From positions 49,538,001 through 49,602,000 of the forward strand of contig OZ360247.1 of NCBI GenBank assembly GCA_977017645.1: a DNA stretch of 64,000 bases. Reading direction: 5' to 3'. The DNA is from Torpedo marmorata. Its lineage: Eukaryota. How positions within the stretch are numbered: the first letter of the stretch is position 1; each line of letters begins with the position of its first letter. Below are positions 5,787 to 64,000 of this stretch, piece by piece. The notes beneath the pieces were generated by a model that was given only the letters and a program-made list of their open reading frames with translations, ran no database searches and had not been told where the DNA came from. Made by a program: the position numbers and the translations under genes.

Positions 5787-8329
5787 AAAAAAAGGAAATG
5801 GTTTTCTTCTGAAATTGTAATAATTTTTTGTTCTATTGTATCTTTTTCCTTCTGTAAATACGTATACAGTATATGAAAAAACATTATTAGTAAATATGCT
5901 GGGAGGGCTGAGGAGGACGGAAGTTGTTTCCTTCAGCACATACGCGTGTGTATGGGTGTGTTAGACCCGACCTGTACGGTAGAGGGAGGCGGTGTCACTT
6001 CCTTTTTGTACACCAGTTTTGTTAAGGGGAGGGTTTCCCCTTTGTTTATATTCACAACTTTTCTACTTTCTATCTTTCCGTCTTTCTTTACTTTAAAACT
6101 GACACGTTGGGAATTGGTGGTCTTACTCCAAAGGGCAAGAAATGATGGATTCTTGAGGAATGGATATGGGGAGAGGGGGTGGGGGGATGGGGTAAAAGAT
6201 TCTCTATCTGATAGGGACCTTTGAGGTGAATAGCAATACAGTAAGATATATTAGTTTTAATGTCAATGGTTTAAATGGACCTGTGAAAAGAAAAAGAGTC
6301 CTGGCATATATCAAAAAGATAGGAGTGGACCTGCCCTTCCTTCAAGAAACTCATTTAACAGAAAAAGAACCCCAAAAATTGAAGAGAGGATGGGTGGGCC
6401 AGGTCATAGCATCTTCATTTAACTCAAAAGCAAGAGGAGTAGCAATTTTAATAGGGAAAAATATTCCAATTAAAGTGCAAGACGTGATTGAAGACCCTTC
6501 AGGAAGGTATATAATGATTCACTGTCAGATATATTCAGAGCCCTGGACCCTGATGAATTTGTATGCTCCCAACACAGATGATGAGAAATTTATACATGAA
6601 ACATTTTTGAAATTGGCTGATGCACAACAAAACATCATAGTGGGTGGAGACTTTAATTTCTGTCTGGATCCGGTTCTAGATAAGTCAGGAAGAACAATTA
6701 TAAGGACAAAAGCAGCTAAAGCTACTTTGCTAATGAAGGATCTGAATTTAATGGATGCCTGGAGAAGACTCCATTCAAGGGAAAGGGACTACTCTTTTTA
6801 TTCATGCAGACATAATTCAAACTCCAGGATAGATTATTTTTTGACATCAGTTCAATTACAGAGTAGAATTGTGACAGCTGAATATAAAGCAAGGCTACTA
6901 TCAGATCACTCACCTTTGATATTAAAAATTACAATGCCAGATAAAAAAAAGACGGTGTATAGATGGAGATTAAATTCAGGGCTGTTGAGAAGACAGGAGT
7001 TTTGTAATTTTATTAGGAAAGAAATTACAAAGTTCTGTGAGACCAACTGTATTTCTACTACCAATAAATTTATTATTTGGGATACTTTAAAAGCATATTT
7101 GCGAGGACAAATAATCAGTTACACTACAAAGATGAAAAAGGAATATACAAGGGAGGTGGATGAATTAGAACATGAGATATCTCATTTGGAAAAAGACCTT
7201 CAAAAGTCAGGCTCGGAGGAAAAACGTCGAAAATTAATTAATAAAAAGCTCAAGTATAACACATTACAAACATATAAAATGGAGAAAATTATAATGAGAA
7301 CTAAACAAAAATACTATGAGCTAGGGGAAAGAGCCCAAAAGGTCCTTGCCTGGCAGTTGAAAACAGAACAGGTCTCAAGAACGATTAATGCGATCAAAAT
7401 GGAAACAGACAGGATTTCCTATAAACCACAGGATATTAATGAGGCTTTTAAACAATGTTACATTAGACTATATGAATCAGAATCTCAAAGGAATATTCAT
7501 AAAATAGGATTCCTGTCACAATTGGATCTTCCAAATCTAGATTTAGAAGAGCAGAGGGAGCTAAATGCCCCCTTTACCCAAGCAGAGATAGAGAGGGCAC
7601 TGGGTTCATTCCAAATTAACAAATCTCTGGGGGAGGATGGGTTTCCACCTGAATTTTATAAAGAATTTAAAGATCTTCTGATACCTCTTTTTATGGAGGT
7701 GTTGGATCAGGCGATTGAGACACATACACTCCCGGAATCATTCTCAACAGCAATAATTACGGTGATCCACAAAAGATAGGGATCCATTAAAGCCGTCTTC
7801 TCATAGACCTATTTCCTTATTAAATTCGGACGATAAGATCATTGCAAAAGCCATGGCAAACAGGCTGGCAGTTTTTTTGCCAAAATTGATAAATATGGAC
7901 CAAACAGGCTTTGTACAAAAAAGACAAATAGTGGACAATGTAAGCAGATTGCTTAGTATAATACATCTGGCACAATCGAGAGATGATCAAGGTGTTGCTG
8001 TGGCCCTGGATGCAGAAAAAGCCTTTGATAGAGTGGAGTGGGATTTTTTATTTAAAGTGCTGGAACGATTTGGACTTGGACAATATTTCATAAACTGGAT
8101 GAAGGCTTTATATAATAAGCCTCAAGCTGGAGTTGTGACCAATGGACAAATTTCTTCAGCATTCCCACTATCCAGATCTACCAGACAAGGCTGTCCACTG
8201 TCTCCAGCTCTCTTTATTTTGGTTATAGAACCGTTAGCGGAAGCTATTCGGCAAGATCCAGACATTAAGGGATTCAGGATTAACCAGGAAGAGCACAAAA
8301 TTAATTTATTTGTGGATGATGTACTGATA

Positions 8330-9176
8330 ATTGTGGCGCTGCCGGAGTCGCTGTAGCGGCAGCGCTGCCGCTGGTGCGGACCCGCGGGGAGCGAGGGAGC
8401 GGAGATACAGTGCTCCCGCGGGGTCCAACCACCCAGTCGACTGCCGTCGATTCCGCACGGGCTTTGAACGGCCCGTTAAAGGAGCCAACGGTAATTTTAT
8501 TTAAGATCCCGCGACCACGGGGTCTGCGCCCAAGATGGCAGCGCCTTTTAACCGGCAGCAGCCACGAGGGGCTGCAGATTTCGGGGAATCCGAGGACTGG
8601 AGCAGGGCACCAGAGGATGGGAAGATCACCCCCCGTCTGAGAAGGAGAAGCGGAGGAGACGACCCACGGGATGGTGACCACGGCGGCAGACCGGTGAGGG
8701 GCTCTGAGGCTGAAGGACCAGTGCATGTGGTGGGCTGCTGGCGCCTCGAGGCGAGGAACCCACGGACGCTGTGGACTGCTGGAGACTGCTGTCGGGAGAC
8801 TCACGCCAGGCTGCGGACTGCTGGAGGCTGGCTCGAACTGGCTGGAGGAGTACCAGGTATCGGAACCGGGATGCGAGGGGGTGCCGAGGGCGACCTGACC
8901 GTGTCGGAGGTTCGGATCTGGAGCTCGGGATGCCGATTGTTTGGACTGGACTCTGTGTGGCTGCGGAAGCGCTGGAGGTGAATCTATGGACACTTGGTGA
9001 CTCTGGGGGGACTCTCTTTTGCTTCTCTTTCTCTGACTGTAAGGAATGTTAGAGGCGCTTAGGCAATTTCTGCCGGTGGCGAATCTGTCTGCCTTGCAGC
9101 AGGCAAAAATAAATTTCATGGAATATGACGCTGTCTTATTACTATGACAATAAATTGAATCTTGAATCTTGAATCT
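8330..9176 (+). mobile_element. GC-rich non-coding retroposon, copy 1 (full length)
   Basis: Interrupts L1 RT at VDDVLI|YLT; flanked by TGATA (8325-8329, 9177-9181); ATGACAATAAA(TTGAATC)n tail. Confidence 0.85.
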
Positions 9177-9806
9177 TGATATACCTGACAGAACCAGCAG
9201 TTTCATTAGAAAAATTGTACTTAAAATTGGAAGATTATGGGAAAATTTCGGGTTATAAGATAAATTGGGACAAAAGAGAGATTATGCCACTTATGGGTGG
9301 GGATTACACTCAATACCAAAGGAATACAAATTTTAAGTGACCGGCAAATGGGATAAAATATTTAGGTATCAAAACAAATAATAACTTACAAGATTTGTAC
9401 AAGTTAAATTACCTCCCCTTGCTTAGAAAAGCTGAAGAGGACCTTAATAGATGGACAGCACTGCCAATAACACTTATTGGTAGGGTCAACTGTATAAAAA
9501 TGAATATATTGCCACGGGCCCAATATATTTTCTAAACACTACCTGTACCATTGCCTCGAAGGTTTTTTCAAGATTTAAATAAATGTATCAGGAAGTTTAT
9601 TTGGAGAGGTAAGGTAGCCAGAGTCTCCACTGAAAAATTAACATGGAGATATAAACTGGGAGGTTTAGAACTCCCAGATTTAAAAAAATATTATTGGGCA
9701 GCTCAAATGAAATTTGTCACCTCTTTTTTTGAAAGAGGAGGCAAGCCCTCTTGGGTAAAGATGGAACTGCATAAGGTGGGAGAGAGGATAGCAGAAGACT
9801 TTATAT

Positions 9807-10650
9807 TCAAGATTCAAGATTCAAGATTCAATTTATTGTCACAGTAATAAGACAGCGTCATATTCCATGAAATTTATTTTTGCCTGCTGCAAGGCAGACA
9901 GATTCGCCACCGGCAGAAATTGCCTAAGTACCTCCAACATTCCTTACAGTCAGAGAAAGAGAAGCAAAAGGAAGTCCCCCCAGAGTCACCGAGTGTCCGT
10001 AGATTCGCCTCCAGTGCTTCCGCAGCCTCCGCAGCCACACAGAGTCCAATCCAAACCATCGGCATCCCGAGCTCCAGATCCGAACCTCCAACACGGTCAG
10101 GTCGCCCTCGGCATCCCCTTGCATCCCGGTTTCGATACCTGGTACTCCTCCAGCCAGTTCGAGCCAGCCTCCAGCAGTCCGCAGCCCAGCGTGAGTCCCC
10201 CGACAGCAGTCTCCAGCAGCCCACAGCCTCTGCGGGTTCCTCGCCTCGAGTCGCCAGCAGCCTGCCGCATGCACTGGTCCTTCAGCCTCAGAGCCCCTCA
10301 CCGGTCCGCCGCTGTGGTCACCGTCCCGTGGGTCGTCTCCTCCGCTTCTCCTTCTCAGACGGGGGGTGATCTTCCCGTCCTCTGGTGCCCTACTCCAGTC
10401 CCCCACTTCCCCTCGTGGCTGCAACCGATTAAAAGGCGCTGCCATCTTGGGCGCAGACCCCGCGGTCGCGGGATCTCAAATAAAACCACCGACGACTCCT
10501 TTAACGGGCCGTTCAAAGCCCGTGCGGAACAGACGGAAGTGGACTGGGCGGCTGAACCCCGTGGGAGCGCTGTATCTCCGCTCCCTCGCTCCCTGCGGGT
10601 CCGCACCAGCGGCAGCGCTGCCGTTACAGCGGCTCCGGCAGCGCCGCCAT
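9807..10650 (-). mobile_element. GC-rich non-coding retroposon, copy 2 (full length)
   Basis: Reverse complement of copy 1; removing it restores L1 codons D-F-I-Y-K-W. Confidence 0.85.
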
Positions 10651-11999
10651 ACAAATGGGATAACAAATTAATATCGGTGTAAAAGAAACCCCCCTGTTGA
10701 ATCACATAATTGATATCTGGCATAAAATAAAATATCAGATTGGGGATAAGGGGAAGTTATCTCCAAATACGCCCCTGGCTCAAAATAGGTGTATACCTTT
10801 TACAATGGATAATAAGATCCTGGATGCCTGGTCCCGGAAAGGGATCAGATGTGTCGAGGATTGCTATGAGCAGGGACAAATTATGTCATTTGAACAATTA
10901 AAAAATAAGTATGGTAATATGAACAACACACTCTTCTGCTATTTCCAGTTGAGATCTTACTTAAGGGATAAATTGGGCCCATCAATGACCTTACCGAAAT
11001 GCAGTGAAGTGGAGACTTTGATTCGAAAGGGGATCACAAAGAAGTTTATTTCAGCAGCCTATCTTTAACAACAAAAAGGAATCCCTAAATGGGCTACATA
11101 ATAGACCTAGACAGAGATGGAAATCAGACTTGGACATAATAATTAATGAACAAAACTGGTCCGACTTATGTCGGGACAGTATGAAAAATACAATAAATGT
11201 GAGATACAGACTGGTACAATATAATTTTTTGCACCAAAAATTGAATAAATTTAAATTAGAAATATCAGATATATGTTTTAGATGCGGCAAAGAAATAGGA
11301 ACGTTTTTACATTTAACCCGGTCATGCCCCAAGGTAAAACCTTTTTGGACGGACTTAGGGAATCTTAGAACAAATTACAGAAATTCAGTTCCCACAACGC
11401 CCAGAATTATTTCTATTGGGCAATATCTCCGGCGTAAGACCTAAGATGAGGCTGTCAAAATTCCAAATAAAATTTGTAGAGATCGCATTGGCGGTGGCCA
11501 GGAAATGTATAGCGGTCACATGGAAGTCTGATTCCCATCTTGGTATGACAAGATGGAATGAGGAAATGTACAGCTGTGTTCCCCTTGAGAAGATTACCTA
11601 TAACCTTAGAAATAGATATGACATATTTTTAAAGATTTGGACTCCATATATACAACACATGGCTGTAAATCTATAGCCAGGCCCCTCCTCGCCTCCAGGA
11701 CCTATGTCCATTTCCTCTTTAAAAATCCGAGTATGCCAAGTAATTTAAGCCTGCGGGGTGGACGACGAGTCTCCAACGTCTTCTTTCCTTTTCTATTTCA
11801 ACGTTTTCTTATTCTATTTCTCTCCTTTCTTTCTTTTAAGGGGGAATTGGGTGGGTGGGTTTTTCTCTGTTTGTAATTTTGTTGTTTTTTAGTATAATAG
11901 TCAACAGACGAATATTATATTTGATGATGTATTATTTTTGTTATTGCTAATATGTTTGGCTTAAAAAAATACAAGTAAAATATTCAACAACAAAAAAAA

Positions 12000-13260: not shown

Positions 13261-13878
13261 TACTGACGTTTTCAATAGAGGACATGCAGGAGCCAATAAG
13301 GTCGACAAATAAAATTGTGGTAATGACCAGATCATCTCAGATTCAGATTTCAGATTTATTGTCAGAGTATATACATGACATCACATACAACCCTTAGATT
13401 CTTTTTCCTGCGGGCGAGGCAGAATTACCACTTATTGGTAGTGCAAAAAAACTGTACACAATGTACACATGTAACCAAATAAAGAACTGTAAGCAGATAA
13501 CTAAATGTAAACAAACTGACTGTGCATTACAGAGAAAATTTAAAAAAAATCAATAAAGTGCAAAAGTAAGAGTCCTTAAATAAGTCCCTGACTGAGTTTG
13601 TTGTTTTTTTTTAATATTTTATTTAAATTTTTAAATCACAGATTACATAAAATAATTTTGCATATAATTCTTAAAAAATACATGTGATTACATTTTCTCC
13701 CCCCCTTCCCACCCTCCCCTCCCTAGCCCCTATATCCCCTATTCTAAATTTTAAAGTAAAATAATAAAAAGAAGAAAAAGAAAAAGAAAAGATAGAAAAA
13801 TAGAGTGAGGAGTCAATAAACTTAAAAACTAATATACCTTAGAGGTTATTTTGCCGGCGGATCTGATATCCAGAGAAT

Positions 13879-21316: not shown

Positions 21317-21809
21317 TACATATTATGTGTGTATGTGTGTGCACCGTGGTCTGGAGAAATGCTATTTTGTCTTGTATATGTACAGTCAAAGGATATTGAA
21401 CTTGAACTTGATTGGCCAAATCAGATTGTTTTATACCATGGCAATAACTTATGTGTTGCAATATTTTAATCCTTCCCCCACCAAACCCATATGATTTTAT
21501 GGGAGAGACAAGAAAACAATAAAAATCCAATCTAATTGGAAAAACATTTCTGGAAAATTCCTTCCCAATGGATGATCAAAATGAATCCAGGAGAGCACAG
21601 TGTCCCTGATGATACTGCATGTTGTTTGTACATGGTGATCCCTGCCTCAGCCAGATCTGGGCTAGCTCTTGCGTGATGGCTTTTGGTGAATTCAGGTCCA
21701 AAGCCAGAATTGACAGTCTGTTCCACTGTTTCACCTTACCTTGGGGAAAGAATGGCTTCCTGGCGTCCAACTCAGCTCTCACCAAACTCACAATTTTCCA
21801 GTGAATTAA

Positions 21810-22050
21810 ATTTTTAATTTGGAGACACAGCACGTTAACAGGCCCTTCCAACCCACAAGCCCGTGCCACCCAAATACACCCATGTAACCAATTTACCTAC
21901 TCACCCCGTACGTCTTTGGAACCGGAACACCCAGAGTAAGCCAAAGTAGACAAGGGGAGAACATACAAACTCCTTACAGACAGCACTGGATTCAAACCCG
22001 GGTCGCTAGCACTGTAATATTTTTGCACTAACTGATACAATAATTGTGGC
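21810..22050 (-). mobile_element. tRNA-derived HE1/V-type SINE
   Basis: Reverse complement of the 42709-42955 family. Confidence 0.8.
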
Positions 22051-22185
22051 ACTCCCCAGTTTTCCCTCATTCATTGACCTATTTGTTTTGTGGTGCTTCG
22101 GAGCAAACGCCATTAATTCTTTGCTTATGTTCTCACCTATGGATGGAAGAGAATGGAAAGTAATCTTCATATAAGGCACCTTTCA

Positions 22186-23510: not shown

Positions 23511-23954
23511 ACATTTTCTTTTTTTGTTTCTCACATCATTAATCCTTTGGACTACTCCAAGTCTGAATTCAAATTAATATCAAATTAGAAGCAGTTTTAA
23601 CATGGAAGGATTGTGTTGCCTTTTTTCACACAAGGCTTATAAAACCAGTGCAGAGAGAAGATTCTTCTTCCATCAGTCTTCACTAGATTTGAATGTTGAC
23701 CCTGGAGATACAAAGAGAGAGTGCTAAACTGTGGTGTTGATCAGTTGCCCCGATGAATCATTTCTAATTTCACTATAGGCAAAAAGCCAGGGATCTAAAT
23801 TTGGAGACCTGAAATCTGGTTTACAGAATTATGGAAATCATAGAATCATTGAGTATTTATGACACTGGAGGCTGTTTGCTCCATGGTAACTGTGTTGGTC
23901 AGTTGTTGATGACAGGTTATGGGGAGGGAGCAGGATAATGGTCTTGAGCTAGTG

Positions 23955-24328
23955 CAGTGGTTTTCAAACTTTTTCTTTCCACTCACATACCACTTTAAGT
24001 AATCCCTATGCTATAGGTGCTCTGTGATTAGTAAGGGATTACTTAAGGTGGTATGTGAGTGGGAAAAAAGGTTGAGAACCACTGCTCTAGACCCAATTGT
24101 TACTGAAATATTTTGCTTGAGAAAAATTGTCATTGGCCCATTTCCTTTGGAGTTATGAAACCGTGCACATAACGAGTCAATTAGGGACGATTAAAAAAGT
24201 GGTTTTCAAACTTTTTCTTTCCACTCACATACCACCTTAAGTAATCCCTTACTAATCACAGAGCACCTATGGCATAGGGATTAATTAAGGTGGAATGTGA
24301 GTGGAAAGTAAAAGTTTGAAATCCACTG
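23955..24328. mobile_element. Compound hAT (Charlie-type) MITE, copy A
   Basis: CAGTGGTTTTCAAAC termini; 8-bp TSD AGCTAGTG/AGCTAGGG; two palindromic units around a spacer. Confidence 0.88.
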
Positions 24329-24414
24329 AGCTAGGGGATCAGCCATGGCTGCATTAAATGGCAGAAGAGGTATGAAGGGCTGTGAATGGCCTAACTTACC
24401 CCTCATTTTACTGT

Positions 24415-24908
24415 AAGGAAAAACACAATGCTGGTACTCAGCAGGTCACACCGCATACTTTATATCGCAATGATAACGATACATAACCAACATTTCTGGC
24501 TTGAGCCTTTCATCAAGGTATGGAAAATGTAGGCAGGCGCCCGAACAAAATGGTGGGGGAAGGAGCAGGGGGAGGAGCACAGTCCCACAGGCGGGATGTA
24601 ATAGGTGGATAAGGGAGGGAGGATACAATAGCAAACAAGTGGAGGGGGGATATCCTGCTGTTGTGCCCTCCCTCCCTTATCCACCTCTTACCTCCCGCCT
24701 GTGGGACTGTGCTCCTCCCCCTGCCACTCCACTCCCCCCCCGCAACATTTTATTCAGGCACCTGCCTACATTTTGCTCATACCCTGATGAAGGGCTCAAG
24801 CCAGAAATGTTGGTTATGTACCTTTATCTTTGCTATATAAAGTACACTGTTTCTCCAGCATTGTGTTTTTACTTCAATCACGGTGTCTGCAGACTTTCGT
24901 GTTTTACT
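24415..24908. mobile_element. Penelope-like fold-back terminus with hammerhead motifs
   Basis: ~215-bp inverted arms; TSD CCTCATTTTACTGT (24401-24414) / CCTCGTTTTACTAT (24909-24922). Confidence 0.8.
24778..24817 (+). ncRNA. Minimal type I hammerhead ribozyme motif
   Basis: ACC-CTGATGA(24784-24790)-AG-GGC TCAA GCC-A-GAAA-TGTT-GGT: core, stem II, loopless stem III, stem I ACC/GGT. Confidence 0.65.
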
Positions 24909-25640: not shown

Positions 25641-26396
25641 CTGGAATAACTTTAGAGAAACTCTGGGCATAACTTTATGATAGCTGTACTGGTTTGTCAG
25701 ATTATGAGAGGGCAATCTCATTTTCCAGTCATAATTATTTCTTCATCCCCTCATTACCTGTCAGGCGATGACAATAGAAATTTCAGTTTGCTGTGGGTGG
25801 GGTTTATGATCATAGCTTCAGGGAGAGAAATTCCTCTATGGACTTTCCACAAGGCCTGCAGAGACGCATAGTTGCATGGCCCTTGCCCGTACATGTGGCC
25901 GTGTTTCTGTACGTCTGATAACATCTAGAATATCTCATTTACGTGCCTGAAATATTAGGTAATGCTAAAGCAAAAGTATCCAACCTAAAGTGACCAGAAT
26001 CAGCACTGAGTTTTTATTGCAAATTCAAAGTGTTTTGACAGAAGCAAATGTAACAATCTCAGCAATTTCGAGAGGCAACTATTATAACAACGGTAGCTTA
26101 GCAAGACAACAGTGATTACGATGTTCCTTTGCCTGGTTGCTGCAGACAGGTATTAGCCTGAGGTGTTGTTTATCTTTTAAATCAGCTTTATCTTCCCATC
26201 AAGGGCGCCCAACTCCAAATAAATCAAAAACAGTAGCCTAATGGTTTTTATGCAAGAATAATATGGTGAAGGCCCCAACTTTAAATTCTGACCACCTTAA
26301 TCTGGGCTAAAATATGTCCTTCAAAAAATGGAGTCTGCCCTACATCTGCCCCGCCCTGTGTGATGACTCTGAATATTCCAATTTGCTATTAAATGT

Positions 26397-26781
26397 TAAA
26401 ATTTAGACGTAAAGCACGGTAACAGCCCCTTCCGGCCCACGAGCCCGTGCCGTCCAATTACACCCAATTAACCTACAAACTCCGTACGTTTTTGAAGGAT
26501 GGGAGCAAACCGGAGCACCCGGGGAAAACCCACGCAGAGCGAAGCATGAAAGTCTGCAGACGCTGTGATTGTACTAAAATCACAGGAATGCTGGCGGAAC
26601 TCAGCTGGTCTCGCAGCGTCCATAGGAGGTAAAGATATATGACCGATGTTTCGGGCCTGAGCCCTTCGTCAAGCAGACACAGGAAGAACGTGTAAACATC
26701 TTACAGACAGTGCCAGATTCAAACCCAAGTTGCTGGCGCTGTAATACCATTGTGCTAACTGTTACGCTAACTGTGCCACCC
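26397..26781 (-). mobile_element. HE1/V-type SINE interrupted by a Penelope terminus
   Basis: SINE halves rejoin across a GCAGA duplication (26534-26538, 26673-26677). Confidence 0.8.
26539..26672 (-). mobile_element. Penelope-like terminus beginning at the hammerhead core
   Basis: Minus strand starts TTGACGAAGGGCTCAGGCCCGAAACATCGG. Confidence 0.75.
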
Positions 26782-27089
26782 AGTTTCTTTTATTAAAAGA
26801 AAAAAAGTTGCTGTAAGGTACGATAGAATGTAAGAGTGGGACAATCTCAGACAGCCAAGTTTTCCTAATTAATTTCTCTGAAGTACTGCCATTCTTATAA
26901 TTTCATATTTATTAGCCAGCATCTTGTTGGCCACACCCTCAATACTGAGAAATGGAGTGCTCCACTTGATGAAACAGGAGCAAGGAACGTCCTTTGAATT
27001 TTCCGTCAATCGCTTTGAGTTGCTTGGCTGAGCCACCAGTGACTGACTTGGCTGATTTTCGAACAATATAACCAGACAATGACACTGTG

Positions 27090-27600
27090 TTGGGTGGTGA
27101 GGGTATAAGTGTAAACAGGCTTTTCCCACTGAGGTTGGGTGAGGCAAGAACTAGAAGACGTTGGTTCAGGGTGAAAGGCGAAATGGTTAAGGAGCGCATG
27201 TGGGGGAACTTCTTCATTCAGAGGCTGGTGAGAGTGTGGAATGCGCTGCCATCTGAAGTGATGGATGCGGGCTCGATTTTGACATTTAAGAGAAATTTGG
27301 ATGGGTATATGGATGGGAGGGGTATGGAGGGCCATGGTACGGATGGGAGGGGTATGGAGGGCCATGGTATGGATGGGAGGGGTATGGAGGGCCATGGTAC
27401 GGATGGGAGGGGTATGGAGGGCCATGGTATGGATGGGAGGGGTATGGAGGGCCATGGTACGGATGGGAGGGGTATGGAGGGCCATGGTACGGATGGGAGG
27501 GGTATGGAGGGCCATGGTACAGATGCAGGTCGATGGGACAAGGCAGAATAATAGTTTGGCAGGGATAGGCCGAAGGGCCGTTTCTGTGATGTAGTGTTCT
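27090..27600 (+). mobile_element. CR1 3' end
   Basis: NFFIQRLVRVWNALP..FKRNLD; GGCCGAAGGGCCGTTTCTGTG tail. Confidence 0.8.
27311..27520. repeat. 30-bp G-rich minisatellite, 7 units
   Basis: GGATGGGAGGGGTATGGAGGGCCATGGTAY x7. Confidence 0.97.
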
Positions 27601-27869: not shown

Positions 27870-28029
27870 TTAGTTACCATTACTGAAACCAGTATTCATT
27901 TTAGTTACCATTACTGAAACCAGTATTCATTTTAGTTACCATTAATGGTTAGTTACCATTACTGAAACCAGAATTCATTTTAGTTACCATTAATGGTTAG
28001 TTACCATTACTGAAACCAGTATTCATTTT
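27870..28029. repeat. 31-bp / 48-bp compound tandem repeat
   Basis: TTAGTTACCATTACTGAAACCAGTATTCATT units interleaved with TTAGTTACCATTAATGG. Confidence 0.9.
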
Positions 28030-32551: not shown

Positions 32552-34030
32552 GGGGGCGGTACGGTTAGCGTAGAGGTTAGCACAACGCTGTTACAGCGCC
32601 AGCGGTAGGGACAATAGACAATAGGTGCAGGAGTAGGCCATTTGGCCCTTCAAGCCAGCAGCGCCATTTCCTGTGATCATGGCTGATCATCCACGTTCCT
32701 GCCTTCTCCCCATATCCCTTCACTTCGCTATCCTTAAGAGCTCTATCTTGAAAGCATCCAGAGAATTGGCCTCCACTGCCTTCTGAGGCAGAGTATTCCA
32801 CAGATCCACAACTCTCTGGGTGAAAAAGTTTTTCCTCAACTCCGTTCTAAATGGCCTACCCCCTATTCTTAAACTGTGGCCTTTGGTTCTCGACTCCCCC
32901 AACATCAGGAACATGTTTCCTGCCTCTGGTGTGTCCAATCCCTTTATAATCTTATATGTTTCAATCAGATCCCCTCTCATCCTTCTAAATTCCAGTGTAT
33001 ACAAGCCCAACCGCTCCAATCTTTCTACATATGACAGTCCCGCCATCCCGGGAATTAACCTCGTGAACCTACGCTGCACTCTCTCAATAGCAAGAATATC
33101 TTTCCTCAAACCTGGAGACCAAAACTGCACACAATACTCCAGGCGTGGTCTCACCAGGGCCCTGTACAACTGCAGAAAGACCTCCCTGCTCCTATACTCA
33201 ACTCCCCTTGTTATGAAGGCCAACATGCCATTAGCTTTCTTCACTGCCTGCTGTACCTGCATGCTTACTTTCAGTGACTGATGAACAAGGACACCTCGAT
33301 CTCGTTGTACTTCCCCTTTTCCTAACTTGACACCATTCAGATAATAATCCTCCTCCCTGTTCTTGCCACCAAAGTGGATAACCTCACATTTATCCACATT
33401 AAACTGCATCTGCCATGCATCTGCCCACTCACCCAACCTGTCCAAGTCCCCCTGCATTTTCATAACATCCTCCTCACATTTCACACTGCCACCCAGCTTC
33501 ATTTCATCTGCAAATTTGTTAATGTTACTTTTAATCCCTTCATCCAAATCATTAATGTATATTGTAAGCAGCTGCGGTCCCAGCACCGAGCCTTGCGGTA
33601 CCCCACTAGTCACTGCCTGTCATTCTGAAAGGGACCCGCTTATCCCTACTCTTTGTTTCGTGTCTGCCAACCAATTTTCTATCCATGTCAATACCCTATC
33701 CCCATTACCATGTGCTCTAATTTTGCCCACTAATCTCCTATGTGGGACCTTATCAAAGGCTTTCTGAAAGTCCAGGTACACTACATCAACTGGCTCTCCC
33801 TTGTCCATTTTCCTAGTTACATCCTCAAAAAATTCCAGAAAATTAGTCAAGCATGATTTCCCCTTCGTAATCCCGCACTGTCTGTAAGGGGTTTGTACGT
33901 TATCTCGATGTATGTGTGGGTTTCCTCCCACCCTTCAAAACATACGGAGGTTGTAGGTCAATTGAGTGTAATTGGGTAGCACGGGCTCGTGGGCCAAAAG
34001 GGCCTGTTACTGTGCAGTATGTCTAAATTT
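32552..34030 (+). mobile_element. HE1/V-type SINE split by CR1 (32552-32608 plus 33869-34030)
   Basis: Head GGGGCGGTACGGTTAGCG..CAGCGCCAGCG resumes as AATCCCGCACTGTCTGTAAGG. Confidence 0.8.
32610..33868 (-). mobile_element. CR1 LINE, 5'-truncated
   Basis: ORFs 33620-33931 and 32720-33613: DFQKAFDKV, GVPQGSVLGP, KFADE; (CTATTGT)n tail. Confidence 0.92.
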
Positions 34031-34337
34031 AAAAAAAAATATATATATATATATTTTGGCACTGACTGTTATGTATTTACAGCATTTCCATTTTTCTTTC
34101 ACAGGTAATTGCCTTTTCATATTTACAAAGTCAAGTGTCCAAAATCTACATTTTCCATTAGTACTCATGTAGCCATATTTTTACAAGTTATTGCAATTGA
34201 AGTGGCTTGACCCTGATCTGCTTCACCACCCGGATGTTCCACAAATAACCTGTTGACCATACAAAGGATGAAAGCTACACCACACACATTGGAAAGGTAA
34301 TCTCTGCTCTGCTTGCTCTGACTTACAGAGAAAAATA

Positions 34338-35065
34338 AATGGTGGCGCTGCCGGAGCTGCTTTAACGGCAGTGCTGCTGCTGGCGTGGACCCACGGAAAG
34401 TGGGGAGCAGAGACACAGCGCTCCCCTGTGGGGTCCAACTGCCCGGTCCGAGTGCTGTCGGCTCCGTACAGGCTTTAAACGGCCTGCTAAAGGAGTCAAT
34501 GGTGGTTTATTGTAAAATCCTGCGACCGCGGGGTCTGGGCCCAAGATGGCAGCGCCTATGTTCAGCAGTGGCCACGAGGGGTTGCAGACTCCGGGGAAGC
34601 AGAGGACTGGTGCAGGGCACCAGAAAACGGGGAGACCATCTGCCTGTTTGAGAACGAGAAGCAGAGGAGATGACCCATGGGTCGTTGAACATGGTGGTGG
34701 ACCGGTGAGGGATCTCTAAGGCTGAAGAACACACAGGCAGCGGGCTGTTGGCGACTCAAAGTGAGGTACCACACAGGCTGCGGGCTGCTGGAGACTGGCT
34801 CAAGACTGGCTGAAGGGGCACAAGGTATTGGAATTGGGAGGCGAGATGGTGCTGACGGCGCTGAAGTCTTCCTGTTCGTGTCGGAGGTTCGTACTGGAGC
34901 TCGGGTTGCCGATGGTTTGGACTGAAGGCTGTGTGGCTGCGGAAGCACTGGAGATGAATCCATGGACACTCAGTGACTCTGGGCGCACTCTCTTTTGCTT
35001 CTCTTTCTCTGACTGTAAGCCGCGCCAGGCAATTTGTGCTGATGGTGAATCTTTGTCTAGCCATT
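34338..35065 (+). mobile_element. GC-rich retroposon, diverged copy 3 (tail missing)
   Basis: Same 5' end AATGGTGGCGCTGCCGGAGC and internal CCCAAGATGGCAGCGCC. Confidence 0.8.
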
Positions 35066-35355: not shown

Positions 35356-35837
35356 TGTTCATGGAATAGAGCAATCTGGGATGTAATTCTTTATCTGTCA
35401 TAAAGCATGCCACAGAACATTTGATTCCAATGTGAAGAGCTGGATGGTGATTCACAAAAGACAATGTACCGTATCATCTTCAAAGAATGCCTACTTTCAT
35501 CCCACTGAGCTGATACAACCCAATCAGTTTGATCACAACTGATTTGTCTCTCAACTATATCCATCCACCTGTCTTCCATATTCCTTAGTACTTAGACCCA
35601 ACAGATATCACTGGATCTCAGTTTAGAAAGTTTTAATGATCCTAACCTCATGGCTTTCATCCTCATGAATTCCACAACTCTGAGTGAAGGGGCACTCTCT
35701 GATAGTATCCATGAACTGCCTAGTTTGTATTTAAAGTTATTTGCCCTTGTTTTGAATTTTACACCACTGGTAATAATTTCCTTCTGTCAACCCAAACAAT
35801 CCCTTTAATATTCTTAAACAATTAAAGCATCGTTTAA

Positions 35838-36120
35838 TTTTAAATTTAGACATACATACGTACAGCACGGTAACAGGCCATTTCGGCCCACGAGTCCGTG
35901 CCGCCCAATTTACACCCAATTAACCTACACCAATTAACCTACAACCCCCGGTACATTTTGAACGGTGGGAGGAAACGGGAGCACTTGGAGGAAACCCACA
36001 CAGACACGGGGAGAATGTACCAACTCCTTACAGACAGCACGGGATTCGAACCCCGGTCCCGATCGCTGCCGCTGTAACAGCGTTGCGCTAATCGCTACGC
36101 TAACCGTGCTACCCTGTCCC
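35838..36120 (-). mobile_element. HE1/V-type SINE
   Basis: Family match; B-box-like GGTTCGAATCC on minus strand. Confidence 0.85.
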
Positions 36121-43672: not shown

Positions 43673-43914
43673 TCTGTAAAAGATGGGCAAGGACGTCAAC
43701 TGAAATGAACAAAGATGGCAAAATGAAGTTGAGATGCAGATCAGACATGACCAGGGAGAACGACAGAATAAGATCGGCTCAAAGGATTGAACGGCCTACT
43801 CACGTGTAATCCTCCTCACACCTCATCAAGAATAATAACTTTCTTTGTCTGCAAGCTAACCTTCTTTCTTCTTCGGTAGACTCTGGGATTAAAGATGAAT
43901 TCCACTTCGCTGCA

Positions 43915-44600
43915 AAGGGTTCAACTGCCCGGTCCTAAGGCTTCGTACAGGCTTTAAACAGCTAACGGTGTTTGTAAAATACTGCCAATGTGAGGTCTGT
44001 ACCCAAGATGGCCTGTGCTAAGCAGTGGCCATGAGGGGTTGCAGACTCGGGGGTGGGGGGGGGGAGCAGCGGACCGGCACAGGGCACCAGAAACGAGGAA
44101 AACACCCCTCATTGAGAAGGAGAAGCAGAGGAGATGACTCTACAGTACAGTGACCACGGCAACGGACCAGCGAGGGCCTCAGCGGCTGAGGAACCCACAC
44201 AGGCTGCGGGCTGCTGGACACTGGCTCATGGGAACCAGATATTGGAGCCGGGATTCAAGAAGGTGCTGAGGGCAAGAAAGGCTCCCAAAGGGCCTCAGGC
44301 GCTGAAGGCTTCCTGATTGTATCGGATGTTTGGATCTGGACCCCGGGTTGCCAATGGATAGAACAGGGGTCTGTGCGGCTGCAGAGGCTGCGGGAGCGCT
44401 GGAGGCGAATCCACGGAGACTCAGTGTCTCTGAAGGGTCTCTCTTTTGCTTCTTTTTCTCTTGTACTGTAAGGGGCGCCAGGCAACACTAAAGGCAACCC
44501 TTTGTCAGCCTTATGGCAGGCAGAAGGCAATTTTGTGTAATATTACATATTCTGTACTATTACATGACAATAAAAGAGTCTTGAATATTGAAATCTTGAA
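43915..44600 (+). mobile_element. GC-rich retroposon, diverged subfamily copy 4
   Basis: CCCAAGATGG, GAGAAGGAGAAGCAGAGGAGA, CTCTCTTTTGCTTCT; ATGACAATAAA..CTTGAA tail. Confidence 0.75.
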
Positions 44601-54514: not shown

Positions 54515-56170
54515 AAAGCTTTGGCTACGGTCTTTGGCATCACAATTTTCCACCCTGACTGACATATCTCCCAGCACCCCCGGAAAAATCATTACTTTTG
54601 ATAACACTCCCTTTCTCTCATCCATCTAATTTGTTGTACCACTTCCAAACATTTTAAGTTTGGTCATGATAAATTTGTGATTGCTTTGCTGACATTCCAT
54701 TGTAAAATTTGGCAACTGAAAAATTTGTTTCCTCTAATCCAAGTAAAAAGTAAAGACTTATTTCTGTGCTGCCTTTCAAAACCTTGGCATATTCCAAAGT
54801 GCTTTATAAGTACCTGAACTTTGGAAGTGCTTTACTTCTGAAGTTCAGGTATTGTTCTAACGAGGGGGACCGTGTGCGCCAAGTGGCTAGCAAGAGCTTT
54901 GGCTACAGTATTTTGATCCATGCGAGTGCAACTACTCATTGAGAAGATGAACGGCTCACCTTCCACCTCCTTCTCCATGCTGTGCTCAGGTACAGATGGC
55001 TCCATGAAGCAACCTTTGCCTTCATTCTATTTAACTTTATTGCAATTAACATCCTTTCTAAGTTTCAACCTTCCTTTTTTCAACACATTTTCTATTTGTT
55101 CAATTAATTCCACATCAATTTCCGCCTCTTGCCCAGATGGTCTGTGACAATTCCCTATTATTTATTTCCTTTTGCATCACAATTTTCCACCTTAACTGAC
55201 TAATATTTCCCAGCACCCCATGAAAAATCATTACTTTTGATAACACTCCCTTTCTCTCCTCCCTCTAATTTGCTGTACCACATCCAAAATTTTAAGTTTG
55301 GTCATGATAAATTTGTGATTGTTTTGCTGAAATTCCATTGTAAATGATTCAAGATTCAATTTATTGTCATGTAATGAGGACAGTGTCATATTACACAAAA
55401 TTGCTTTATCCTGCTGTAAGGCAGATAGATTCGCCATCGGCAGAAATTGCCTGAAGCTCCTCTTAGAGTCAGAGAAAGAGAAGCAAAAGAGAGTCCCCCC
55501 AGAGTCACCGAGTGTCCGTAGATTCGCCTCCAGTGCTCCCACAGCCTCTGCAGCCACACAGAGTCCAGTCCAAACCATCGGCAACCCGAGCTCCAGATCC
55601 GAACCTCTGACACGATCAGGAACCCTTCAACTCCCTCGGCTCCCCCTCGCATCCCGGTTCCGATACTTGGTACCCCTTCAGCTAGTTGCGAGCCAATCTC
55701 CAGCTGTCCGCAGCCTGCTGTGAGTCCCTTGACCGCAGCCCATAGCCTCTGTGGGTTCCTCGCCTTGAGTCACCAGCAGCCCGCCACATGTGTGGGTCTT
55801 TCAGCCGCAAAGCCCCTCACTGGTCTGCTGCCATGGTCACCGTCCCGTGGGTTGTCTCCTCTGCTTCTCCTTCTCAGACGGGGGTGGGGGGGGGGTGGTC
55901 TCTCCGTTTTCTGGTGCCCTGCGCCAGTCCTCCGCTTCCCTGGAGTCTGCAATCCTCGTGGCTGCTGCCAATCATAGGCGCGCAAACTTGGTAACTGAAA
56001 AATTTGTTTCCCGTTCCTCTAATCCAAGTAAAAAGTAAAGACATTTCTGTGCTACCTTTAAAAACCTTGGAATATTCCAAAGTGCTTTACATTTACCTGA
56101 ACTTTGGAAGTACTGTACTTTACTTCTGAAGTTCAGACACTGTTCGAACGTGAGTCTGTGGCAGCCAAGT
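54515..56170. repeat. Local tandem duplication (~375-bp unit); second copy carries insertions
   Basis: 54515-54890 aligns to 54893-54915 + 55173-55345 + 55983-56170. Confidence 0.85.
55346..55982 (-). mobile_element. GC-rich retroposon copy 5 (5'-truncated)
   Basis: GATTCAAGATTCAATTTATTGTCAT tail; body matches copy 2. Confidence 0.85.
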
Positions 56171-61150: not shown

Positions 61151-61523
61151 CAGTGGTTTTCAAACTGCCCCCCTAAACTCACATTTCACCTTAAGCAATC
61201 CCTATGCCATAAGTGCTCTGTGATTAGTAAGGGATTGCTTAACGTGGTATGTGAGTGGGAAGAAAACGTTTGAAAACCAGTTTTAATCATACCTAATTGA
61301 CTCGTTATGTGCACGGTTTCATAACTCCAAAGGAAATGGGCCAATGACAATTTTTCTCAAGCAAAATATTTCAGTAACAATTGGGTCTAGAGCAGTGGTT
61401 CTCAACCTTCCCTTCCCACTCACATACCACCTTAAGCAATCCCTTACTAATCACAGAGCACTTATGGCATAGGGATTGCTTAAGGTGGAATGTGAGTTTA
61501 GAGGGGTAGTTTGAAAACCACTG
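61151..61523. mobile_element. Compound hAT MITE, copy B (opposite orientation to copy A)
   Basis: Perfect 8-bp TSD CTTTAGGC (61143-61150, 61524-61531); spacer is the reverse complement of the copy A spacer. Confidence 0.9.
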
Positions 61524-62004
61524 CTTTAGGCCAAACATGGGGCCATGGTCATAATTATGAATCTGAAATCTAAAATTTATCCTGCAGGGTTGGGCACATC
61601 TAAATTAGCCACCATCACTACTCAGCATATGTAAAGACTAAATGCACCTGACCTCTACTTTTACACTTACGCCAATTTCGCTGCATTGCTCCAAAACTCA
61701 GGTGCAGTATTGAAATGTTAATGATAATTTATTGTCATATACATTGTACAATGTACATATGCACCGAAATTCTTACTTGCTACAGCTGAACAGGTACTTC
61801 AATAAAACCTGCGGTAGTATGCATTAAATTAAAAAAAAAAATCATGAATCATCAAAGATAGATAATAAATGTTCAGTTCTCATAGTGCAAGATAAAAGTG
61901 GCGTTACAATAGTGCAAACAGTCCTTTTGCGGTGTCTGAGCAGTCCATGATTAGTATAACAAGGGGAAGTTCAAAAGCCTGACAGCCGTTGGAAGGAAAC
62001 TTGG

Positions 62005-63385
62005 ACGTTTGTCTCCTTACTTGAGGAAGGATGTACTGGCTTTGGAGGCGGTGCAAAGGAGGTTCATCAGGTTGATTCCAGAGACGAAGGTGTTAGCCAA
62101 TGAGAAGAGATTGAGTCGTCTGGACTGTACTTGCTGGAATTTAGAGGAATGATAGGGGATCTTAGAGAAACATATAAAATTATGAAAGGCATAGATAAGA
62201 TAGAGGTAGGTAAGTTGTTTCCATTGGTGGGGAGACCAGAACTAGGAGACAGCCTCAAGATCCAGGGCAGTAGATTTAGGACAGAGATCTGAAGTAATGG
62301 TGGCGCTGCCGGAGCCGCTGTAGCGGCAGCGCTGCCGCTGGTGCGGACCCGCGGGGAGCGAGGGAGCGGAGATACAGCGCTCCCGCGGGATCCAGCCGCC
62401 CAGTCGACTGCTGTCGGTTCCACACGGGCTTTGAACGGCCCGTTAAAGGAGCCGACAGTGGTTTTATTTGAGATCCCGCGACTGCGGGGTCTGCGCCCAA
62501 GATGGCAGCGCCTTTTAACCGGCAGCAGCCACGAGGGGCTGCAGACTCCGGGGAAGCAGGGGACTGGAGCAGGGCACCAGTGGACGGGAAGATCACCCCC
62601 GTCTGAGAAGGAGAAGCGGAGGAGACGACCCACGGGACGGTGAGCACAGCGGCAGACCGGTGAGGGGCTCTGAGGCTGAAGGACCAGTGCATGCGGCGGG
62701 CTGCTGGCGACTCGAGGCGACGAACCCGCGGAGGCTGTGGGCTGCTGGAGACTGCTGTCGGGGGGGACTCATGCCGGGCTGCGGACTGCTGGAGGTTGGC
62801 TCGAACTGGCTGGAGGAGTACCAGGTATCGGAACCGGGATGTGAGGGGGTGCCGAGGGCGACCTGACCGTGTTGGAGGTTCGGATCTGGAGCTCGGGATG
62901 CCGATCGTTTGGACTGGACTCTGTGTGGCTGCGGAAGTGCTGGAGGCGAATCTATGGACACTCGGTGACTCTGGGGGGACTCTGTTTTGCTTCTCTTTCT
63001 CTGACTGTAAGGAATGTTAGAGGCGCTTAGGCAATTTCTGCCCGTGGCGAATCTGTCTGCCTTGCAGCAGGCAAAAATAAATTTTGTGGTATATGACACT
63101 GTCTTATTGCTATGACAATAAATTGAATCTTGAATCTTGAACTGCTTTTCCTAGAGGGTGGTGAATCTGTGGAATTCGCTGCCCATTGAAGCAGTGGAGT
63201 TGACCTCAGTAAGTATATTTAAGACAAGGTTGGATAAATTTTTACAAAGTACGGGAATTAAGGGATATGGGAAAAAGGCAGGTAGGTGGAGATGAGCCTA
63301 TCATCAGATCAGGCATGACCTCATTGAATAGCGGAGAAGGCTCAACGGGCCAGATGGCCGACTCCTGCTCCTATTTCTTATGTTT
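62005..63385 (+). mobile_element. CR1 3' part split by GC-rich retroposon
   Basis: RKDVLALEAVQRRFIRLIP..FRTE | NCFS*RVVNLWNSLP. Confidence 0.85.
62296..63141 (+). mobile_element. GC-rich retroposon copy 6 (full length)
   Basis: Collinear with copy 1 end to end; (TTGAATC)n tail. Confidence 0.88.
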
Positions 63386-63701
63386 TTTTTTACTGTTTTT
63401 GAACCTCATGAGGCTTCTGAATCCTGCACTGCTTTTAAACTCACTGGGCCTAGACAACAGAAATTCCCAACCTCCAATTTTCCCCTGCTCGCCTCTGGCT
63501 CACCCCACCCTCTCACCTCTTTATACTGTCTGCCCTTTACACTCTCAGTCCCGATGCAGCGTCTCAACCCACATCAACCACCCCTTTACCTCCATAGATG
63601 CTGCTTGACCAGCTAATTTGCTCCAGAAGTTTGTTTTTCTTTCCCAACAAACTTGTATGGTCTACACCTTTTGTTGTCCATTGTCTCAAGATTATATAGA
63701 T

Positions 63702-63833
63702 CAGTGGTTCTCAACCTTTTTTCCCCCACTCACATACTTAAGTAATCCCTTACTAACTAACTAAACTGCTCTGTGGTTAGTAAGGGATTACTTAAGGTGG
63801 TATGCGAATGGAAAAAACGTTTGACAACCACTG
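63702..63833. mobile_element. Single palindromic unit of the hAT MITE
   Basis: CAGTGGTTCTCAACC..TTGACAACCACTG; flanking 8-mers do not match. Confidence 0.8.
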
Positions 63834-63837
63834 CTTT

Positions 63838-64000
63838 AAGGTTCATCATACTGATTCCTGGGATGGCAGGACTGATGCATGAAGAAAGACTAGATGGACT
63901 CGGTTTATACTCGTTGGAATTTAGAAGAATGAGGAGATTTTATTGAGATGTTTAAAATTCTGACAGGACTGGACAGATTAGATGCAGGAAGAATGTTCCT
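63838..64000 (+). mobile_element. CR1 fragment (cut by window edge)
   Basis: LIPGMAGLMHEERLDGLGLYSLEFRRMR. Confidence 0.8.

Follow-up and report, generated by a model that had tools for sequence, protein, structure and literature searches.

An abundant ORF-less retroposon with Rex1-type ends in Torpedo marmorata, probably a non-autonomous LINE of the Rex1 clade

The closest described systems are the ORF-less bipartite LINEs, represented in the relevant part of PMC5786205 by RIME/Ingi, NARTc/L1Tc, Bov-A, RTE-N2_Lch, WALLSI3/RTESINE2, Vingi-1_EE and the R2 derivatives. Like the element described here, they have no ORF, no small-RNA head and LINE-type ends, and they are presumed there to be transcribed by pol II and mobilised in trans, as would also apply to the element (PMC5786205). 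Two differences appear when the element is set against the families listed in that part. These families have long stretches with 70-90% identity to a known parent, whereas the likeness of the element is at motif level or covers ~60-100 nt at its ends; and the element has a 700-nt body without a known source and a doubled head. In the same passages, such families are reported for only RTE, Ingi, Vingi and R2, with the Rex1 clade missing (Kojima 2018, PMC5786205). The design of an ORF-less non-autonomous LINE is already known, and the abundant, long-lived Rex1-type family is probably a variant of it.

The autonomous Rex1/Babar LINEs, as far as they are covered in the relevant parts of PMC6274825 (via Volff et al.) and PMC13343379, share with the element the start AAGATGGCG/AAATGGCG and a conserved 3' UTR followed by oligonucleotide repeats; Rex1 coverage is given in PMC13343379 as highest in rays. 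In contrast, the element has no EN/RT ORF, and its tail unit differs from those of the five families sampled here. RSg-1 is a Rex1-type LINE. SINEs with Rex1 or RSg-1 tails (SINE2-5_NV with Rex1-24_NV; SlmI, HpaI and OS-SINE1 with RSg-1) are likewise non-autonomous on a Rex1-type 3' end, but in the passages of PMC3747384 that deal with them they carry pol III promoters and heads of the tRNA or 5S type, both of which the element lacks, and the element is longer. The chondrichthyan SINEs HE1, SacSINE1 and CmiSINEs belong to the same broad host group and have LINE-derived tails; their tRNA heads, CORE, Deu or V bodies and CR1 or L2 partners, as given in the passages concerned (PMC5499810, PMC3747384), set the element apart. 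No description of the family was found in the open-access literature. It is absent from the relevant passages of PMC7245038, PMC6274825, PMC5499810 and PMC13320814, and its motifs are absent from the first ~400 nt of the consensuses in the supplement of PMC13343379, a portion that does not reach the tails.

The window, i.e. the whole stretch of 64,000 nucleotides analysed here, had been described in an earlier note as holding six copies of a CpG-rich retroposon, and when copy 1 is compared with the window by blast, all six are recovered at the places claimed, with 70-94% identity. Copy 1 (8330..9176, + strand, as are all its parts) is full length and belongs to the young subfamily Y. It begins with head 1 (8330..8371), a Rex1-type 5' terminus with the family form AAATGGCGGCGC, which is partly mutated in this copy and is predicted to fold into a 15-bp hairpin. 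Two more predicted hairpins and then a T-run (8495-8498), a putative pol III stop, occupy 8372..8500. Head 2 (8531..8560) repeats the Rex1-type terminus and contains the YY1/TISU core AAGATGGC. The GC-rich body (8561..9084) contains degenerate internal repeats and no conserved ORF, and is followed by a Rex1-type 3' segment (9085..9154), in which a predicted terminal hairpin (9116-9147) closes on ACAATAAA and for which the best match is the Rex1 (TCTGAA)n family. The (TTGAATC)n tail, of 3.6 units, spans 9155..9179.

Copy 2 (9807..10650, - strand) is full length and Y-related, and copy 6 (62296..63141, +) is full length and of subfamily Y. Copy 3 (34338..35058, +), of the older subfamily O2/O3, keeps its head and has lost the final ~70-90 nt and the tail. 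Copy 4 (43909..44599, +, subfamily O4) is 5'-truncated at about +86 and has a degenerate tail, while copy 5 (55346..~55983, -, intermediate/O1 type) is 5'-truncated at head 2. Alignment agrees with the earlier count of four copies with the head and two without. The copies are otherwise as claimed, except that copy 3 ends at ~35058 and therefore tails are present in five copies; both ends are complete in only three of the six. The CpG observed/expected ratio is 0.85-0.86 in the three young copies, 0.48-0.58 in the three older copies and 0.45 in the whole window.

Copy 1 interrupts an L1-type ORF2 directly after the RT F-x-D-D motif. Its 5-bp target duplication TGATA lies at 8325-8329 (+ strand), as seen both in the sequence and at the empty-site joint, and at 9177-9181, where it overlaps the tail register such that its TGA continues the tail. 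A short flanking duplication with tail microhomology, as noted earlier, is present at this copy. The empty form of the site was found in contigs from two other runs, which skip exactly 852 nt with 5 letters fitting either side; it may come from a paralogous L1 copy and not from the orthologous site. Contigs of four runs in all were aligned to copy 1; those of one run have loose ends there that we take to resemble small-RNA library adapters, and these were not used as evidence. Copies 1 and 2 are 630 bp apart, in opposite orientation, within one L1-type ORF2 (6196-11200). Around copy 5, the segments 54532-54862 and 55169-56150 form a local tandem duplication with the copy in only one unit, which leaves an empty paralogous site at about 54706. 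The window repeats around the copies include CR1, L1-type and several Rex1 families, among them the 3' end of a Rex1 family C copy (13342..13605, -), the family that best matches the young-element tail. The window also holds palindromic MITE-like repeats in several copies (23949-24334, 24415-24874, 61151-61535, 63697-63839), minisatellites at 27311-27525 (30 bp, within a CR1 3' region) and 27870-28029 (31/48 bp), and a high-copy repeat of ~250 bp (21800-22060, 26390-26790, 33864-34034, 35834-36110 and about ten more places) that is probably a conventional SINE.

The family is large. An exact 34-nt CpG-degenerate head pattern has 9,149 matches in the 6.2-Gb assembly and the forward tail pattern has 26,869, with 0 matches for the reversed-pattern controls of both. 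Since the reverse tail count of 38,533 double-counts, family size rests on the forward count, and there are about 54,000 copies or more, a minimum from tails. Random genome samples contained 1 copy per 200 kb on large contigs and 5 copies per 200 kb on smaller contigs, and the element accounts for 3,036 of the 400,000 sampled bases (roughly 0.8%, 6 copies). The six copies per 64 kb in the window are therefore a local excess. In runs of two other organisms, the element is matched by thousands of contigs. It is a defined unit of ~830 nt, the consensuses of six subfamilies being 804-841 nt long before the tail. Among the 30 best-matching loci, 29 start within the first 14 nt and the upstream flanks are unrelated. 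All 30 head loci (two rows being one copy) run into the element body, and 29 reach its end. All 29 of the 29 matches to the O4 5'-half run into the body as well, and a unit length of about 800 nt is found as early as O4.

Trees and consensuses give a subfamily ladder O4, O3, O2, O1, I and Y, with consensuses that are 83-93% identical pairwise. Divergence of copies from their own consensus is about 11% for O1-O4 and 4.5% for I, and it is 1.6% at non-CpG sites for Y, where the best-hit copies form a sample biased to the young. At three loci the copy is related to O4 but differs in its terminal stem and ends in a (CCTTGAA)n-like tail, which may reflect a tail exchange, and four loci show a duplicated head or an internal tandem expansion of a 55-60 nt segment.

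The element is a non-LTR (TPRT) retroposon, with fixed ends, 5' truncation, precise insertion and short target duplications. In the tail-anchored set of 133 loci (30 + 23 + 80, after seven duplicate rows were dropped), the 5' end lies at the common start (within 12-15 nt) in 54 copies, and the other 79 are truncated at scattered points. In the first two samples, truncation at head 2 accounts for 3 of 31 truncated copies, so that an apparent excess there is indistinguishable from chance. Among 79 full-length copies, 25 could be paired with an empty paralogous site. The target overlap was 2-6 nt in 16 of these, 8-10 nt in 2 and zero or negative in 7, often equal to the tail letters, although these overlaps are noisy because the paralogues are only 72-98% identical. 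No LTR or TIR was detected; comparison of one consensus with itself gave only short internal palindromes, in keeping with the earlier statement on TIRs. Target-primed retrotransposition accounts for these data, because a fixed 5' end, 5'-truncated copies, overlaps of 2-6 bp and successive subfamilies are as expected from it.

The 5' end is of Rex1 type, and it is doubled. The motif AAATGGCG/AAGATGGCG is the usual Rex1 5' terminus in this genome as well as in published Rex1 consensuses, and in the element it occurs twice, at +1 and about +205, in all six consensuses. Among Rex1 families A, C and F, for which 5' ends were compared, full-length A copies begin with AAAATGGCG or AAGATGGCG, C copies begin with AAAATGGCG, and 16 of 30 F loci begin at GTGGGCGGCGC-GTCGGAGC-like ends; the background of the start motif is 13 in 400,000 positions. 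In the first ~400 nt given in the supplement of PMC13343379, teleost, skate and stingray Rex1 consensuses share the start, several in the form ATGGCGGCGC-N8-10-GCAGCGGC, and head 2 also carries the downstream GCAGCGGC as several of these termini do. One L2 and one Crack consensus in the same supplement open with the motif too, which is typical of Rex1 and not exclusive to it. The 5' likeness spans only a motif of 9-30 nt without extended homology. The earlier note was right that there is no tRNA head; its treatment of the head as anonymous did not survive, as the element carries a 5' terminus of Rex1 type in two places. The note had also pointed out an internal YY1-type motif; head 2 contains AAGATGGC, described in the relevant part of PMC2518114 as the core of TISU, to which YY1 binds and which serves in starting both transcription and translation.

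Three hairpins are predicted in the first ~175 nt. Folding z-scores are -2.6 to -6.1 for the first ~220 nt, -3.7 to -4.9 for the last ~120 nt and -2.0 to +2.9 for the middle. Covariation across the six subfamily consensuses was considered as further support for the hairpins and rejected, since the ends did no better than the middle (kept:broken 11:8, 29:21 and 16:9). In the Rex1 LINEs themselves, an ATG in YY1/TISU context follows the full-length start after only 3-4 nt at six A and two C loci, and the ATG near the Rex1-A start appears in frame with the long ORF; judged from these starts, the A and C LINEs may have a near-zero 5' UTR.

The 3' end consists of a hairpin, ACAATAAA and a microsatellite, an architecture also seen in the five Rex1 families sampled. 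The Rex1 tail families compared were A (ATTCTG)n, B and F (GACTT)n, C (TCTGAA)n and D (CTTGAA)n. Folding of single copies places a closing hairpin immediately upstream of (AC)AATAAA in 5 of the 6 element copies and in 4 of the 5 Rex1 families. The last 62 nt of Y match Rex1-C best (z 8.3, or 4.2 with the last 10 nt fixed); under the latter condition z is 3.2 for I and 1.7-2.5 for O1-O4. The O1-O4 tails match family B about as well as family C and, with z 1-2.7, show weak likeness past the final 10 nt. The CR1 tail control showed no significant similarity. A Rex1-like 3' end is thus upheld, while the specific parallel drawn earlier to the (TTCTGA)n family A is not: z is 0.4-1.7, with nothing significant beyond the last ~10 nt, and family C is the closest. 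No sampled Rex1 family has a (TTGAATC)n unit. Of 51 (TTGAATC)n arrays, 50 are inside element copies and the remaining one is a very short truncated copy.

From both ends together, we consider it probable that the element is an ORF-less, pol II-driven non-autonomous LINE of the Rex1 clade. The core of the earlier note, a non-autonomous retroposon without a tRNA head that would be mobilised by Rex1 and possibly transcribed by pol II, fits every test run. In the mechanism we propose, YY1 would bind the AAATGGCG/AAGATGGC motifs of the CpG-island-like head and start pol II at +1, so that every full-length copy would regenerate its own promoter. The Rex1 ORF protein would recognise the terminal hairpin, ACAATAAA and the microsatellite; the Rex1 endonuclease would nick the target, and the tail would pair with 2-6 nt and prime reverse transcription. 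Tiny duplications and frequent 5' truncation would result. A single master lineage would have been replaced stepwise from O4 through O3, O2, O1 and I to Y. Enzymes could be supplied by intact-looking Rex1 frames of 955-996 codons, of which the 996- and 960-codon frames have EN, RT and PF09004. Identical Rex1 matches were also seen on several small contigs, which suggests large tandem or collapsed segmental repeats carrying Rex1.

Another origin, which we regard as possible if doubtful, is that the element arose by simple internal deletion, as a bipartite derivative, from one particular Rex1 family whose GC-rich 5' region is unusually long and which survives at low copy number here or in relatives. 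It is compatible with the main reading and differs in origin only. Both element ends are of Rex1 type, the ray consensuses HypSab_Rex1-6 and LeuEri_Rex1-7 have long GC-rich 5' extensions within the first 400 nt given (PMC13343379), and there are 268,505 Rex1 candidates in the genome by a first-look count, of which part was sampled. Against this, a Rex1 ORF end was found upstream of the tail in 0 of the 133 tail-anchored loci and an ORF-bearing element at 0 of 59 head or O4 5'-half loci, the tandem double head is unlike the product of a single deletion, and the body has no coding signature. Neither blastn nor tblastx matched the 700-nt body to the full-length Rex1 A and F copies or the near-full C copies. 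A parent LINE was sought by tail patterns, the head pattern, the O4 5'-half search and Rex1 protein searches with none found, and a metagenome pattern scan returned 0 matches; within the part of the Rex1 candidates sampled, the tail sample bounds a parent at about 2% of tails. Six apparent Rex1-joined tails were separate or nested insertions, and three further suspicious tail loci were very short truncated copies. An autonomous LINE ending in (TTGAATC)n, as envisaged in the earlier note, was absent among the sampled Rex1 families. The element is also not the long 3' UTR of a coding LINE, the refutation considered there, because 54 of the 133 copies share one 5' end and none continues a Rex1 ORF.

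The origin of the non-autonomous LINE that we favour is probably a Rex1 lineage that has since become rare or died out in this genome, a second Rex1-type head having been gained at the front. A more specific version, which we put forward as speculative, makes the element an orphan pol II-driven SINE analogue that has outlived its parent LINE, with two Rex1 termini stacked as a structured double promoter and a tail re-tuned by subfamily toward an abundant Rex1 family. The re-tuning is suggested by the tail score against Rex1-C, which rises from 41-45 in the old subfamilies to 50 in the intermediate and 55 in the young one.

It is unlikely that the element is a SINE-like chimera of a captured cellular CpG-island promoter or non-coding RNA with a Rex1 tail, the likeness of the head being convergence. 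None of the Rex1 copies tested matches the body, genes with TISU/YY1 elements are common, AAGATGGC occurs abundantly downstream of transcription starts of the host in the data of PMC2518114 concerned, and some SINEs in the relevant part of PMC5786205 have GC-rich heads of unknown origin. However, the element opens with the motif from its first bases on, just as Rex1 does, and head 2 adds the GCAGCGGC of Rex1 termini. There is no Rfam source RNA either: Rfam and tRNA (ARAGORN) searches of the element gave no matches, with no tRNA, 5S or 7SL head, and no Rfam hit for a ribozyme or other known RNA came near threshold at the 5' end.

The CR1 group as a whole has microsatellite tails and hairpins, and YY1-type starts occur in an L2 and a Crack consensus, so that mobilisation by another LINE of this group (L2 or CR1) has to be weighed. 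It is nevertheless very improbable, as is a conventional pol III SINE. The end with GACAATAAA plus a microsatellite is common to Rex1 families A-D here and is not seen in the window CR1, Rex1 and CR1 being the tails compared. As for pol III, the element has no B box above chance and an internal T-run at +168-174, in agreement with the earlier remark that no pol III boxes are visible. The definition in the relevant part of SINEBase (PMC3531059) is failed twice, since there is no pol III small-RNA head and the length is 804-841 nt instead of <700 bp.

A coding HAL1-like element making a helper protein is hardly credible: a 175-codon frame opens at the second ATG of the Y consensus, in TISU context, and is intact in 20 of 64 Y-type copies, and the longest stop-free frames somewhat exceed those of shuffled sequences (p 0.011 and 0.02), but the corresponding frame is 13-87 codons in 11 older copies, substitutions between subfamilies are even over codon positions (e.g. 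25/25/25), the long frames differ in strand and frame among subfamilies, and the 175-codon frame has no homologue and no Pfam match. A functional ORF is absent from the element, and the earlier description of it as non-coding is confirmed.

The element, in our reading probably a non-autonomous LINE of the Rex1 clade, bears on a question that the discussion in Kojima 2018 (PMC5786205) leaves open, namely whether such families are restricted to RTE, Ingi, Vingi and R2 through biased sampling or through a requirement of transcription. With its about 54,000 copies or more, a family with Rex1 ends speaks for sampling bias, and it offers a ready test system. The YY1/TISU-type motif on Rex1 5' ends could act as promoter and start codon both. 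If the orphan version were true, it would mean host switching in the Rex1 clade through gradual mimicry, not a tail swap. For the genome, CpG-island-like, YY1-bearing cassettes of 830 bp are spread over roughly 0.8% of the sampled sequence, and the young copies could be presence/absence markers for ray phylogeny.
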